A DNA stretch of 64,000 nucleotides. Origin: an uncultured Chloroflexia bacterium (GTDB taxonomy: Bacteria > Chloroflexota > Dehalococcoidia > UBA2979). The DNA lies in assembly GCA_963728205.1 (NCBI GenBank), contig CAVSIV010000001.1, forward strand, positions 288,001-352,000. Reading direction: 5' to 3'. Made by a program: the position numbers and the translations under genes. Each line of letters opens with the position of its first letter. Position 1 is the stretch's first letter. Positions 43,277 through 47,453 of the stretch are shown one piece after another. Below the pieces are notes generated by a model. It ran no database searches. It saw only the letters and a program-made list of their open reading frames with translations, and was not told the origin of the DNA.

Positions 43277-43485
43277 TCTGGTGAAGGAGGCGGGTGACTG
43301 GTTGCAATCGTAGCACCGCGCATGGAGGACCGACAAGGAGGAGAGGGCGCCGGGCGCGACCCCGCCGCGTGCTGCGACCCGGAAAGGTGACGGTCCGAGG
43401 CCGATCGATCGTCGGCGGTAAGAGCGCGGCAAGAGCCGCTCCGTAGGGTGCGCGCGCAGGGCCGGTGCAGCGGGGGGCGAGCCTG

Positions 43486-43746
43486 ATGCCGTACGAAAGT
43501 CACGTCGAAGTGTGGGAGTTCACCCCGCGGCAGCGGGACATCGTCGGCCGGATGTTGCGCGGCACCGCGCCCAAGCAGATCGCCCAGCGGCTGGGGCTGG
43601 ACGTGCGGACGATCTACTGGCACGTCGAGAACATCTACCGCATGGCGGACGTGCACAGCCTCGGGGAGTTCTTCGCGTGGGCGAACGACCACCGCGAATG
43701 TTGCAGCCTCCAGCTCGTCTGGAGCACCCCCCGCAGGAGTGCCTGA
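43486..43746 (+). CDS. Stand-alone LuxR-type helix-turn-helix protein
   Basis: FTPRQRDIVGRMLRGTAPKQIAQRLGLDVRTIYWHVENIYRMADV fits the LuxR/GerE HTH; no receiver domain. Confidence 0.82.
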   Translation: MPYESHVEVWEFTPRQRDIVGRMLRGTAPKQIAQRLGLDVRTIYWHVENIYRMADVHSLGEFFAWANDHRECCSLQLVWSTPRRSA

Positions 43747-43860: not shown

Positions 43861-44124
43861 ATGCTTGCCACGATGTCGCCGACGCTGGAGCTGCCGTTCG
43901 ACGCCGTCGAGCTGCCCCGGAACGCCTCGCTGGTTCCGTGGGAGGCGCCCTGGATCGACCTCAGCGGCCGCGAGGTCGAGGGGGACGAGTTCGCGTTCCT
44001 GGCCGCCTGCGTCGTGTGCGTGGCGATCATCAGCGTGGTCGCGGTGGCGGCCATGGTGACCGGCAGCTCGATGGACGCCGGGGTCAACCTCGGCCCGTTC
44101 GGGCTCGAGATCTCGGTCAACTAG
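43861..44124 (+). CDS. Putative RiPP/bacteriocin-like precursor peptide (87 aa)
   Basis: SD GAGGAG; acidic Pro-rich leader with WEAPWIDLSG; hydrophobic core FAFLAACVVCVAIISVVAVAAMVTG...; directly upstream of the ABC exporter and RRE-protease. Confidence 0.7.
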   Translation: MLATMSPTLELPFDAVELPRNASLVPWEAPWIDLSGREVEGDEFAFLAACVVCVAIISVVAVAAMVTGSSMDAGVNLGPFGLEISVN

Positions 44125-44191: not shown

Positions 44192-44983
44192 ATGACGGGA
44201 GACAGCGAGCACGTGCCGGTGTGCGCGATGGGCGGCGTCTGGTTTGGCTACGGGCGCGTGCCGGTGCTTCGCGGACTCAATCTAACCGTTGCCCCTGGCA
44301 CGGCGGTGGCGCTGATCGGCCCGAACGGGTGTGGGAAGACGACGACCCTCCATGTGCTGTCGGGCCTCCTGAGGGCGTCGCGCGGCACGGTCGCGATCGC
44401 GGGCCGCGGGGTGCCGGGTCGCCCGGAGGAGGTCAACGCACTCCTGGCATACGTCCCGGATACGCCGACGGGGTTCGAGCACCTCGCCGTCTCGGAGTAC
44501 GCACGGCTCGTCGGCGCGGTGCACCGGGCGGACACGGACTACGCCCGGCGCGTTCGCGACCTGGTGCGCATTCTCGCGCTCGAGCCGTACATCTCGCAGC
44601 CACTCGGCACGCTCTCGTACGGCACGCGTCGCAAGGTCGCGCTCGTCGCGGCAGCGGCCCTCGATCGCCCCCTCCTGATGCTGGACGAGGCGACCAACGG
44701 CCTGGACCCGGAATCGGTGAACGTCGTCGAGAAGCTGGTTCGCTCGATCGTCGCACGCGGGCGAGGGGTGCTGGTCGCGACGCAGGACGTCTATTTCGCC
44801 GAGCGGACCTGCGACGAGGTGGCGCTGCTTCGCGACGGTCGAGTGGTGATCAGTGGTCTGGTGTCCGACGTGAAGCGCGAACGGGGCGCGGCAACCCTCC
44901 GCGACGTGTTCCTTGCTGCGACCGGCCTGGATGTCGAGGATGGAGCGCTCGATGCCGCCCTGGCTCGCGCTGACGCGCGCTGA
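44192..44983 (+). CDS. ABC transporter ATP-binding protein (exporter type)
   Basis: Walker A GPNGCGKTT, signature LSYGTRRK, Walker B LMLDEATNGLD; H-loop variant ATQD. Confidence 0.93.
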   Translation: MTGDSEHVPVCAMGGVWFGYGRVPVLRGLNLTVAPGTAVALIGPNGCGKTTTLHVLSGLLRASRGTVAIAGRGVPGRPEEVNALLAYVPDTPTGFEHLAVSEYARLVGAVHRADTDYARRVRDLVRILALEPYISQPLGTLSYGTRRKVALVAAAALDRPLLMLDEATNGLDPESVNVVEKLVRSIVARGRGVLVATQDVYFAERTCDEVALLRDGRVVISGLVSDVKRERGAATLRDVFLAATGLDVEDGALDAALARADAR

Positions 44984-46373
44984 GTTCCTGAGACTGCGAA
45001 CCCTGTCGGCGCTCGCGCGGCGAAATCCGCTCCTCCCGCTTGCCGCCGCCGCGGCGCTGGTCCTGGGAGCGTGGCTCTCGGTTCGAGCCGGGATCGCGAC
45101 GGGCGGCCTCGTCGCGGGGGCGCCTCCGGCGCTGCTCCCGCTCCACACCCTCTTCCTCCTCTCCGCCGGCATGCTCGGTGGTGGGTCCGCCCTCCTGGCC
45201 CCCCGCGCATCTCGACACGATGAGCAGTTGCGGCTGCTGCCCTTGCCGCCGTCGCGCGTCTTCCTCGGCACCACGGCCGTTCCGCTGACGGCTCTCTGGG
45301 TCGGATCGCTCCTGCCCTTCGCGTGCTTCGTCGGGCCGTTCTACTGGCAGATCCCGGTGCCGCATCGGGGCGGCTGGTTTGCAGTGCTCTGCGCCGCGTA
45401 CCTCGCTGCGTGTGTGGTGGGAGCGTCGGTCGCGGAGGCCATCCGCCTGCTCTGGCACGCCCGGGCAAACCCCCGCCAGGCGGCCTTCGCGTGGGTGGCG
45501 TTGCCGATGCCGGCGGCGCTGCTCCTCGTTGCGGTGGTGGGCCGGCGCCCGTGGTGGTCGGGCACGGCCGCGTGGCTCCCCGGCGCGGTCGGGCGACCCT
45601 TCCACGCCGAGAGCGGACTGCTCGCGATCACGGCGATCCTCGCGTCCGGCCTGGTCGCCGGGGTCGTATGGGTCCTGCTCGGCGGGCGGGTGGTGCCAGC
45701 GGCTCGCGCGGAGCGGATCTGGATCACCCTGTCCCCCCGGCATTCCGGGCGATACGTGCTCCTGGGGTGGTGGCTCGTCACGGCGTTCCTGCGCGACACC
45801 CCGCTTTTCCTGAGTGCCATCCTCGCGACATGTGGGGCTGCGGTCCTGGCGTTCGCCAACGTCTTCATGGGGCGCGAAGGTGGACTGCTGGCGCCCCTCG
45901 CCCTGCTGCTCGCGCTTGCCGGCGGCGGGCAGGTTGCCATGACGCTCTCCGAGCGGCTGCAGGCCTCCGGGTGGTTCTGGCGCCTGGCGCCGAGTCCGCG
46001 CGAGGTTCCCGGCCTCTGGTGGTGGGTCGGCGCCTCCGCGCTGGCGATCGCCGTCTCGACTGTGGCTGTTGTGCCGGCGGTCCTGCGCTCGACCGTGCAA
46101 CCCGCGGACGCGGCCGTTCTCCTCGCCGCAAGCAGTTTCGGCGTGTCGGCGCTCGGGCGAGCCACTCCATGGAATAGCCGGTCCCAGTTGCAGCAGGCCG
46201 GGTCGACCGTCCTCTACTTCGGCGGCCTGCTCGGGGTCGGCGGGCTGTTCGACTGGGTCGGCGGGCGCGTGCCGGCACTCATGGCCGCATCTCTCGTCGT
46301 GCTCCTCGTCGCAGCGCTGTCCGCCGGGTTGTGTGCGTATCTGCCGTGGAGGAACTCATGGCGGCAGGCGTAG
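44952..46373 (+). CDS. Polytopic membrane protein, probable ABC exporter permease
   Basis: About 12 hydrophobic segments in two halves; 'LRLLPLPPSRV' and 'WRLAPSP' loops typical of ABC-2-like permeases; overlaps the ATPase gene. Confidence 0.75.
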   Translation: MPPWLALTRAEFLRLRTLSALARRNPLLPLAAAAALVLGAWLSVRAGIATGGLVAGAPPALLPLHTLFLLSAGMLGGGSALLAPRASRHDEQLRLLPLPPSRVFLGTTAVPLTALWVGSLLPFACFVGPFYWQIPVPHRGGWFAVLCAAYLAACVVGASVAEAIRLLWHARANPRQAAFAWVALPMPAALLLVAVVGRRPWWSGTAAWLPGAVGRPFHAESGLLAITAILASGLVAGVVWVLLGGRVVPAARAERIWITLSPRHSGRYVLLGWWLVTAFLRDTPLFLSAILATCGAAVLAFANVFMGREGGLLAPLALLLALAGGGQVAMTLSERLQASGWFWRLAPSPREVPGLWWWVGASALAIAVSTVAVVPAVLRSTVQPADAAVLLAASSFGVSALGRATPWNSRSQLQQAGSTVLYFGGLLGVGGLFDWVGGRVPALMAASLVVLLVAALSAGLCAYLPWRNSWRQA

Positions 46374-47188
46374 AACGAGCCCGGCTCCCGAGCGACGTCA
46401 CAGTCGCGCCGACGGCGATTGTCGATACCGCGCTCGAGCAGATCTATCCGATCTCGCCGTCGGGCCGGGAGGTGCTGACGCTGCTCCTCGAAGGCAGAAC
46501 GTTCTCGGAGGTCGCCGATCGAATCGCCGCGGACCACCGCCTCGCGCCCGAGCGGGCGGAGCGCCACGTTCGCGAGTTCGCGTACCAGCTGAACCACACG
46601 GATCTGCTCAACGTCGACCCTGGAGGCCTGCGTCGGGAGACGTTGCAGGTCGCGCACACGCTAGCGCTGGCCGCACTTGCACGGCGGCTTCCGAGGTTGC
46701 GGCGGCACCGGTATCCGCTCCGCAATCGGTCGTTTCTGCCGCTGCAGGTCGATGTCGCGCGGGGGATCTTGGTTGGTCTCTGGCCCTGCTGGGCGCTGCT
46801 GGCGGCGATCTACTGCGTCGGTCTCCTTGCCTCGCCCGGGCGAATCGCGGCGCTGTCGTTTGTCCCCGCCCTGCTCGTCGCAACCGTCATTCACGAGTCC
46901 GGTCACGCATTTGCCGTGGGACGGCGCGGTGGGGGCGCGTTCTTGAGCATCGTCGGGATGTCGGTGCGCGTGATGCACTCGCCGCGCTACTCGGGCTTCT
47001 TTGTACACGCGGCCGGCAGCGGGTTCGCCGTCGGATGTGGATTGCTCTGCCTGGCGGTTGCGTACTTGTCGGGCGCTGGGGCCTTCGCGATTGCAAGCGG
47101 TCCATTCCTGGTGAATGCCCTGGCACTGACCGTCCTATCGGCCGATGGACGGCAACTCGTTGTGGGCCCGTGGGAGAGGGAGTCCTGA
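46358..47188 (+). CDS. PqqD-like RiPP recognition element fused to an M50/site-2-type intramembrane metalloprotease
   Basis: N-term YPISPSGREVLTLLLEGRTFSEVADRIAADHRLAPERAERHVREFAYQL (PqqD pattern); TM-embedded VIHESGH; AAG; NALALTVLSADG (N..DG third ligand); SD GGAGGA. Confidence 0.75.
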   Translation: MAAGVERARLPSDVTVAPTAIVDTALEQIYPISPSGREVLTLLLEGRTFSEVADRIAADHRLAPERAERHVREFAYQLNHTDLLNVDPGGLRRETLQVAHTLALAALARRLPRLRRHRYPLRNRSFLPLQVDVARGILVGLWPCWALLAAIYCVGLLASPGRIAALSFVPALLVATVIHESGHAFAVGRRGGGAFLSIVGMSVRVMHSPRYSGFFVHAAGSGFAVGCGLLCLAVAYLSGAGAFAIASGPFLVNALALTVLSADGRQLVVGPWERES

Positions 47189-47189
47189 G

Positions 47190-47453
47190 ATGCTCGCGCT
47201 TCGAGCCGGTGCGATTGGCTTCGTCGTGGTTCTGCTCATCGAGGTTGCCTTCAGCGTGGGGCTGATGGTGGTTGCCCAGGCATCGGGGTGGGGTCACATC
47301 CACCTCGCGCTGGGGTCTCTCGACTTCCTGGAGATCACCACGAACACGCCTCGAACGCGCATCGTGATCGGCACCGGCGTCAGCCTGCTCGCCATGGCGG
47401 CGGGCCTGCTGAATGCGGCGGGCGCATACTGGCTGCGCCGTGCCGAGAGGTAA
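47190..47453 (+). CDS. Small two-TM membrane protein (possible immunity/accessory)
   Basis: 87 aa, two hydrophobic helices around a polar loop; ATG 1 nt after the previous stop, GGAG upstream. Confidence 0.65.
   Translation: MLALRAGAIGFVVVLLIEVAFSVGLMVVAQASGWGHIHLALGSLDFLEITTNTPRTRIVIGTGVSLLAMAAGLLNAAGAYWLRRAER

Follow-up and report, generated by a model that had tools for sequence, protein, structure and literature searches.

RiPP (peptide made by the ribosome and modified after translation) recognition elements (RREs) are the main handle by which new ribosomal peptide pathways can be found irrespective of their class, and knowledge of the motifs they read lets substrates be assigned. Thirteen such motifs have been mapped, YxxP among them (PMC12710340; this source and those that follow are cited from the portions of their text that were available). 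In lasso peptides the leader consensus is YxxPxLxxxGxxxxxTx, with a distance of 17 residues from the Tyr to the core (PMC6856326). In daptide clusters an RRE lying N-terminal to an intramembrane site-2 protease, together with ATP-binding cassette (ABC) transporters, removes leaders from hydrophobic helical peptides (10.1101/2023.03.08.531785), and proteases of the M50 family act in epipeptide and pearlin pathways (PMC10885120). Here we describe a locus in which a lasso-type leader motif stands close to a protease of this kind. It lies in a stretch of 64,000 nt, referred to as the window, which comprises positions 288,001 to 352,000 of the forward strand of contig CAVSIV010000001.1 (assembly GCA_963728205.1, uncultured Chloroflexia bacterium) and has a G+C content of 72%. 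Between nusA and proS, both on the minus strand, we observed a compact plus-strand operon in which a small open reading frame (ORF) of 87 codons plus stop (43861..44124, +) is followed by genes for an ABC ATPase, a large polytopic membrane protein and a fusion of a PqqD-like RRE with a site-2-type protease. We propose, with a probability of about 0.62, that this ORF encodes a precursor of an uncurated family in which a leader and its acidic patch are followed by a ~25-residue helix and then a beta-hairpin, and that the precursor is docked by the RRE, matured by the protease and handled by the ABC transporter.

Translation of the ORF gives WEAPWIDLSG at residues 27-36, Asp42, Phe44 and the tail FAFLAACVVCVAIISVVAVAAMVTGSSMDAGVNLGPFGLEISVN, exactly as described in an earlier reading of this DNA made from its letters (the sequence-only reading), which had seen in it a lasso-type recognition motif on a non-lasso core. 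The motif, W27-E-A-P30-W-I32-D-L-S-G36 (43939..43968, +), fits [YW]xxPx[LIV]xxxG and lies within a leader of residues 1-43 (43861..43989, +), which was delimited from an alignment of precursors, is predicted to be disordered and ends in the acidic patch REVEGDE. It is followed by a hydrophobic helix (residues 44-68; 43990..44064, +) containing a CxxC (C50, C53) and by a C-terminal beta-hairpin (residues 73-86, AGVNLGPFGLEISV; 44077..44118, +) placed by alignment and model. An AlphaFold2 model calculated from 12 aligned precursors left residues 1-42 disordered and placed a helix at 43-68 and the two strands of a hairpin at 73-78 and 81-86, which reproduces the helix and hairpin predicted in the sequence-only reading; the mean predicted local distance difference test value (pLDDT) is 63.9, with ~80-89 across the helix. 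We then asked how often such a motif arises by chance. Of 20,000 shuffles of the 43-residue leader, 5.6% contained [YW]xxPx[LIVM] at some position and 0.43% contained it at a distance of 16-18 residues from the helix. A single-sequence search of a word-indexed collection of 5.8 billion proteins with the precursor returned only the precursor itself, and the same was true for the protease alone. Since the motif has this chance frequency and the lone peptide finds only itself, the answer was sought via the relatives of the neighbouring protease, and profile and exhaustive searches were required to reach them.

An exhaustive HMMER search of 1.84 billion representatives for the protease family yielded 90 proteins at E <= 0.001 and 32 at E <= 1e-10 (query included), nearly all sharing length and architecture. 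The operon made up of small peptide, ABC ATPase, large permease and PqqD/RRE-site-2-protease fusion was found again in Actinomycetota and in another lineage of the phylum to which the window belongs, and there too the small peptide is syntenic, lying immediately upstream of the ABC ATPase. Twelve precursors, that of the window and 11 homologues, were aligned; a third copy at one locus (L036, 11676-12008), for which no start codon was found and whose leader reads LLPPAI, a frameshifted and a contig-truncated copy of L039 and apparently degenerate extra copies of L037 were left out. The motif [YW]xxPx[LIVM] is present in 11 of the 12, and Pro30 is the sole invariant column besides Met1. The aromatic position is occupied by Tyr in 10 of the 12, by Trp in the window and by Ser in one second-copy peptide, the +5 position is Leu, Val or Ile in all 11 motif-bearing sequences, and a Gly at +9 occurs in 6/12. 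The leader end SGREVEGDE|F of the window stands opposite RGEVAETDE|V of the Actinomycetota peptides, and LGPFGLEISV of the window opposite the hairpin FGWSGFKVVC of the homologues.

A profile search with this alignment gave 221 clusters (90% identity) at E <= 0.001, of which the 120 listed were analyzed for the motif. It was found in 118 of these 120, always with Tyr, while the remaining two carry Phe at +5, a residue that the published lasso motif [Y/W]xxPx[L/V/I/F/A] permits (PMC13381572). Among the 118 motif-bearing precursors +5 is L/V/I/M throughout, Gly at +9 occurs in 66, and the distance from the motif to the helix (whose start was taken as the first residue after the last charge) is exactly 17 in 109 and 15, 16 or 18 in the others. 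In the sequences compared, the motif thus keeps the lasso register with its 17 residues to the helix, and because it is conserved across homologues it is more than a chance occurrence. Conservation in homologous precursors was the test that the sequence-only reading had named for itself, and the motif was found in the lasso register both in the alignment and among the listed relatives. The leader of the relatives is 22-36 residues long and consists mostly of docking motif and acidic patch; helix and hairpin are the best-conserved part of the peptide.

Three other features considered in the sequence-only reading are not supported by this comparison. The CxxC, which it had suggested may form a disulfide or bind metal, occurs in none of the 11 aligned homologues, which keep one Cys after the helix and one near the C-terminus; two core Cys are kept by all 118 motif-bearing listed precursors as well. 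Its alternative cut after VEG41, resembling double-Gly leaders, lacks support, as the Gly41 column is not conserved and the ABC protein has no C39 peptidase domain: double-Gly/C39 exporters combine a conserved GG/GA/GS at the leader end with a peptidase domain, whereas here neither is present and the ABC ATPase is a soluble subunit of 263 aa. The Thr expected at -2 in lasso precursors is replaced by Asp42 in the window and mostly by Asp/Glu in the homologues.

In the 276-aa fusion protein (46358..47188, +) an N-terminal PqqD/RRE head is joined to an intramembrane metalloprotease with HExxH and DGR motifs, which bears out the RRE and the site-2 protease supposed in the sequence-only reading. 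Its RRE head (residues 1-88; 46358..46621, +) consists of three or four strands followed by three helices and matches Pfam PqqD at 24.7 bits (cutoff 23.4). Against solved structures the family profile found TfuB1 at 5e-8 and also PqqD and TbiB1, and a profile of the RRE only found TfuB1 at 4.9e-9. In the NCBIfam collection the best domain is the lasso PqqD chaperone, which stays under threshold (27.5 bits, cutoff 70). The AlphaFold2 model (pLDDT 90.3, predicted template modelling score 0.86) shows strands and three helices within residues 1-80, then a membrane domain built of helices, in which a hairpin succeeds the HExxH helix; the RRE helices span residues 34-44, 49-60 and 64-80, and pLDDT is 94-98 over most of residues 11-90. 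The top Foldseek matches to the model are TfuB1 and TbiB1, both leader-bound structures, with TM-scores of 0.77-0.86 and root-mean-square deviations (rmsd) of 1.2-2.1 A (TfuB1, 6jx3_B: 0.86 and 1.2 A). By sequence and predicted fold, the RRE head is therefore closest to the lasso B1 proteins TfuB1 and TbiB1.

For the protease part, the zinc-binding motif HESGH (H179, E180, H183; 46892..46906, +) lies in a predicted transmembrane helix and a DGR motif (D263, G264, R265; 47144..47152, +) holds the candidate third zinc ligand. Among these residues, D263 is nearly invariant across 34 aligned family representatives, and H179, E180, H183, G264 and R265 are strictly so; model confidence is low from residue 263 onwards. 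The family profile matches the site-2 protease of M. jannaschii (3b4r, MJ0392) at 3.9e-7 across the HExxH helix, with HELGH aligned, and site-2 protease and SpoIVFB appear lower in the Foldseek list with E about 1-2. The window protein gave no match to Pfam Peptidase_M50 (PF02163) at E <= 0.01, and a homologue from genus g123 of the same phylum reached 12.5 bits (cutoff 27.2). With the M50 proteases (MJ0392, RseP, SpoIVFB and also EpeP and TglG/TmoG) the protein shares a transmembrane helix bearing HExxH, the hairpin that follows this helix and an Asp-Gly motif further on, but it has no PDZ or CBS domains, and substrate capture has apparently passed to the RRE head. Judged from the sequence and the helices of the model, the RRE head, which carries no signal sequence, would share one side of the membrane with the Arg-rich loops, with the HExxH helix end and with the last helix at its DGR end, and this side would correspond to the cytoplasmic face.

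The exchange of Tyr for Trp in the leader of the window coincides with exchanges in its RRE. In crystal structures, the conserved RRE residue D70 of LppB hydrogen-bonds the leader Tyr as in actinobacterial lasso RREs, while the conserved N33 fixes a kink at the leader Pro, and the exchange N33A nearly abolished binding (PMC13381572). Trp-type lasso RREs carry Gly and Gln at the two sites and accepted Tyr leaders once Asn and Asp had been restored (PMC13381572). In the family described here, the Asp of 'RDV..F...LN' aligns with 'ERDI' of TfuB1, 'ERDL' of TbiB1 and 'ETDV' of PqqD, and the Asn of 'PLN' aligns with 'QLND' of TfuB1. All nine Tyr-leader systems with an aligned RRE have Asn33 and Asp70; the window, the only Trp system, has Ser33 (46454-46456, +) and His70 (46565-46567, +). 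Position 70 is Asp in 30 of the 34 representatives, His in two, Glu in one and Gln in one. Judged from these sequences, the pairing of Trp with His and of Tyr with Asp is what a direct, lasso-like contact between leader and RRE would predict.

The coding evidence for the precursor itself was evaluated as well. The G+C content by codon position is 0.66/0.46/0.98 (third position 0.977), the value of 0.98 is restricted to the precursor's own frame, and third-position values of neighbouring genes range from 0.79 to 0.93. Immediately 5' of the ATG a ribosome-binding site GAGGAGAG is present. From the third-position pattern and this site, 43861-44124 looks like a genuine gene. That it is an unexpressed chance frame in a genome of 72% G+C is a reading we consider close to negligible: spurious ORFs are common in such genomes and the peptide searched alone finds no homologue, but the third-position signal is confined to its own frame, the ribosome-binding site is in place and syntenic homologues are preceded by strong GGAGG sites. 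The third-position G+C of the precursor also exceeds that of the four downstream genes at 44192-47453 (0.79-0.87). A hidden Markov model built from the 11 foreign precursors ranked the ORF first among 810 six-frame segments of the window, with E 0.11 and 8 bits. The family placement of the window peptide is based on position, architecture and motif more than on overall similarity.

In the mechanism we propose, W27, P30 and I32 (YxxPx[LVI] in the relatives) would dock as an added strand in the cleft of the fused PqqD/RRE head, in the way lasso leaders do on B1; kinship of the RRE, conservation of the motif and the Trp/His pairing point to this step. The site-2-type zinc protease, with HExxH and DGR at the cytoplasmic ends of transmembrane helices and thus on the same side as the RRE, would then cut near the junction of leader and helix, around residues 42-44, which is 17 residues after the aromatic anchor as in lasso precursors; topology and spacing suggest this site. 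Docking and cleavage are both predicted from sequence and fold models. The ABC ATPase and the 12-helix-type permease may serve in export of the hydrophobic product, in its extraction from the membrane or in protection of the cell against it, as the constant linkage of the genes suggests. Tailoring enzymes are not encoded, so that removal of the leader is probably the only modification. In the relatives a disulfide may close the hairpin, and the conserved helix-hairpin with its Cys pair suggests an exported or membrane-acting peptide, whose role could be bacteriocin-like.

A different explanation takes the small protein for a membrane-anchored regulator, from which regulated intramembrane proteolysis by the site-2 protease frees a cytoplasmic N-terminal piece that acts on the LuxR-type regulator or another target and the ABC genes are the regulated output. 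Site-2 proteases classically free N-terminal cytoplasmic domains of N-in proteins, RseP/RseA and SpoIVFB/pro-sigma-K are among the PDB matches, and a LuxR gene encoding only a helix-turn-helix (HTH) domain lies directly upstream (43465..43746, +; 93 aa, Pfam GerE 3.6e-8) and is present in two copies in a genome of the same genus (G001). However, no LuxR gene was seen beside the Actinomycetota or g123 operons at the loci inspected, and the short leader of 22-36 residues together with the better conserved helix and hairpin points to the C-terminal piece as the product, so that we regard signalling as unlikely. A further explanation takes the peptide as a genuine small membrane protein, an accessory or immunity subunit of the ABC transporter, which is no substrate of the protease; the motif would then be kept for other reasons, or the RRE would bind another ligand. 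In favour of this, docking and cleavage are here predictions from sequence and models, the G001 genome retains the protease without the peptide, and the motif arises by chance in the window leader at the frequency given above. On the other hand, the motif is the experimentally defined ligand of the most similar RREs, it is found in 118/120 listed relatives at a fixed distance from the helix, and the Trp/His versus Tyr/Asp pairing fits a direct contact, for which reason we think this explanation improbable.

Compared with the daptides, the likeness to the MpaP system lies in the N-terminal fusion of an RRE to a site-2 protease, in adjacent short precursors with hydrophobic helical cores and in the ABC genes (10.1101/2023.03.08.531785). 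In the available text of that work, the motif ELExMEAP of daptide leaders immediately precedes the core; in the present family YxxPx[LVI] stands at a distance of 17 residues, and only 'WEAP' is similar. The invariant Thr at the C-terminus of daptide precursors, which is turned into an amine by three enzymes, is missing here, as are tailoring genes. The window protease has 276 aa compared to 379 in the daptide profile (NCBIfam NF041824, intramembrane metalloprotease), to which it scores 23.4 bits and the g123 homologue 29.6 bits against a cutoff of 300. The likeness to the linear polyphosphorylated peptides (LPP; LppA/LppB) consists of a non-lasso family with a lasso-type YxxPxV leader and a lasso-like RRE (Nat Commun 2026, PMC13381572). 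As far as its available text goes, LPP differs in having a discrete RRE, a signal-peptidase-I-like protease, a modifying system, the motif YxxPxVLxHQxIxFETxxS, an origin in Bacillota and unrelated cores. With the lasso leaders and their discrete B1 RREs (TfuB1/FusB1, 6jx3; TbiB1, 5v1u/5v1v) the family shares [Y/W]xxPx[L/V/I], a frequent Gly at +9, the spacing of 17 residues and the nearest RRE. In contrast to lasso systems, the operon contains no B2 cysteine protease or C cyclase, there is no Thr at -2, and the RRE is fused to a zinc membrane protease.

For their macrolactam, lasso peptides need a small first core residue and an Asp/Glu at core positions 7-9. In the lasso register the core of the window would begin FAFLAACVV and the peptide ends ...EISVN; as the first residue is Phe and positions 7-9 lack an acidic one, a macrolactam is impossible. 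This bears on the idea of a cryptic lasso peptide or daptide whose tailoring genes are located elsewhere in the genome, for which the lasso-type leader motif and the weak NCBIfam similarity to the daptide metalloprotease could be cited. Against it stand the core just described, the Thr missing at -2 and at the C-terminus (...ISVN), the daptide model at 23 bits against 300 and the lack of any tailoring enzyme in the operons inspected in two phyla (no whole-genome search for lasso cyclase or daptide enzymes was made), and we consider it very improbable. Family scans with Pfam and NCBIfam of seven proteins, the six of the operon and the flanking tRNA synthetase, found no B2 cysteine protease or C cyclase family in the locus (the genome was not searched), and no oxidoreductase, aminotransferase or methyltransferase was found in the window operon or among the ORFs listed at related loci.

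Each element of the proposed precursor pathway has a precedent, and the combination is new to our literature searches: YxxP leader, fused RRE-site-2 protease, helix-hairpin core and absence of tailoring genes were not found together, although the supplements of the daptide preprint and of PMC12710340 might list such groups. The sequence-only reading had suggested that lasso-style recognition is reused to deliver a membrane-embedded substrate to a site-2 protease. Motif conservation and RRE kinship support this in part; the novelty is smaller than it implied, as the daptide fusions and LPP are precedents. The window peptide is probably a divergent member, of Trp type, of an unstudied family in which the docking code of lasso leaders is coupled to a membrane leader peptidase resembling that of daptides, and it would belong to the protease-matured hydrophobic peptides. 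A more specific version, which we put forward as a tentative and rather doubtful proposal, is a distinct tailoring-free class in which the lasso docking code (Tyr/Trp-x-x-Pro-x-aliphatic), read by Asp/Asn or His/Ser in the RRE, guides a fused intramembrane zinc protease to the cytoplasmic boundary of a membrane-inserted helix, and the ABC transporter extracts the helix-hairpin product.

Next, we investigated the distribution of the system. A sample of 401 genomes of the phylum contained 161 genomes with a match to the protease at E <= 1e-5, nearly all of those listed being confined to a generic part, either PqqD or M50. Matches that span 200 or more of the 273 positions in the model (E <= 3e-26) were restricted to the window's genome and four g123 genomes. 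Among 401 genomes of the window's own class only the window's genome matched at E <= 1e-20, and we therefore describe the system as rare and patchy. Seven genomes matched at E <= 1e-20 in a 401-genome sample of one Actinomycetota class. Scanning all GTDB species with a four-sequence alignment gave three loci in Actinomycetota metagenome-assembled genomes (one Gaiellales and two uncultured Actinomycetes), and one metagenome scan, with 586 patterns matched, gave no relative. In all eight Actinomycetota loci reaching upstream of the ABC gene, one ORF of 70-80 aa with a GGAGG-type site lies directly before that gene. An identical copy of one Actinomycetota precursor is deposited at NCBI as a hypothetical protein of Gaiella occulta. 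In the g123 genomes one to three tandem small ORFs are followed by ABC ATPase, permease, protease and a two-helix protein, and some precursor copies and genes are frameshifted.

Of 61 relatives, G001, which belongs to the genus of the window, is the only one with the protease (38% identity), at a locus that is syntenic from nusA to proS. There a second LuxR gene replaces the precursor, no small ORF of at least 20 aa lies between this gene and the ABC ATPase, and no precursor was detectable anywhere in the 95%-complete assembly. The ABC ATPase of this genome (L005, G001:C93, 6274-6876, -) has an in-frame deletion of 37 residues over the LLMLDEA stretch, the Walker B region. The joint loss of precursor and Walker B region fits a functional link between the two. 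As a whole the G001 locus looks like a decaying copy of the system.

Several observations weigh against the precursor reading. The motif taken alone, in a single sequence, is weak evidence given its chance frequency of 5.6%, and by sequence the window peptide is a weak, divergent member of the family (E 0.11) which lacks the Cys pair kept by all 118 motif-bearing listed relatives. The covariation of leader and RRE comes from one Trp-type system only, and His70 and Ser33 were mapped to D70 and N33 of LppB indirectly, via the alignments with TfuB1, TbiB1 and PqqD and the published statement of conservation. Because N33A nearly abolished binding in LppB, Ser33 might by analogy weaken docking instead of retuning it. 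The protease of G001 is apparently intact without a precursor and could have another substrate. Finally, the acidic flank on the N-side of the helix misfits the positive-inside rule for an N-in peptide, and the peptide may never be inserted into the membrane before export.

If the precursor reading holds, the lasso docking code is used on a different product and wired to a membrane protease, which extends the recent finding of its portability. Trp leader with His RRE versus Tyr leaders with Asp RREs offers a testable natural case of specificity retuning; if true, the Tyr/Trp switch known from Bacillota lasso peptides arose independently in another phylum. Should the substrate be membrane-inserted, this would be the first RRE-directed intramembrane proteolysis of a transmembrane substrate. 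The family is not tiny, with 221 precursor clusters and 90 protease representatives and no curated model, the record from Gaiella occulta is a cultured entry point, and the product may be a new hydrophobic antimicrobial or membrane-acting peptide.

Regarding the other genes of the operon, the ABC ATP-binding protein (44192..44983, +; 263 aa) matches Pfam ABC_tran at 3.3e-24, and its best NCBIfam match is of DrrA type and under the cutoff of that model. The large polytopic membrane protein (44913..46373, +; at most 486 aa, start uncertain), the presumed ABC permease, has no Pfam or NCBIfam match and is kept at the same position in all homologous loci; its look-alikes in a structure atlas are named ABC-2 permease, 12TM_1 and ABC_export, which we treat as leads only. 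Neither collection holds a model for the precursors or the permease. A small two-helix membrane protein (47145..47453, +; 102 aa) is kept 3' of the protease in the G001 and g123 loci and was not seen in the Actinomycetota loci. By eye it resembled the precursor core and was considered as a relative of it; this candidate was rejected, as BLASTP found nothing and hhalign gave a probability of 0.4%. A second candidate, a further precursor on contig 6 of the window's genome (E 8e-4), was dropped as a helix-driven match inside a 224-aa protein with an N-terminal transmembrane helix, which looks LemA-like. None of the sequencing runs listed is of RNA, and small shares (0.10 and 0.05) fall to two DNA runs from a single soil metagenome study.

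The first ~25 residues of the window leader are an extension, inserted relative to the homologues in the alignment. In it the sequence-only reading had noted a repeat of LELP/VELP. By eye three heptads can be read at 43885-43947, LELPFDA, VELPRNA and SLVPWEA, each with Pro at position 4; Tandem Repeats Finder detected no DNA-level repeat in this region, and extension and heptads have no counterpart in the 11 aligned homologues. The heptads may be a degenerate duplication of the docking motif. The last of them (SLVPWEA) overlaps the start of WEAP. Two full copies of the motif, YGAPSL and YEAPAV, are carried by one precursor from Actinomycetota (L056, 2563-2802).

A few further features were observed at the related loci. 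At L036 (G328:C2, 8006-10940) three copies of the precursor are retained, but frame changes break up the genes for ABC ATPase, permease and protease alike, through decay or through indel errors in the assembly. L037 (G150:C27, 5753-6532) has 11 CRISPR-like repeats of ~37-45 nt with a spacing of 71-77 nt, which lie a short way upstream of its precursor genes. In six loci (L040, L042, L052, L053, L054 and L057) the protease is followed by a conserved one-helix protein (MVWE..F.LL.LKIPI.YL) and another small membrane protein, and in most such Actinomycetota loci these are followed by a gene that, by eye, is presumably 2-oxoglutarate-dehydrogenase-like.

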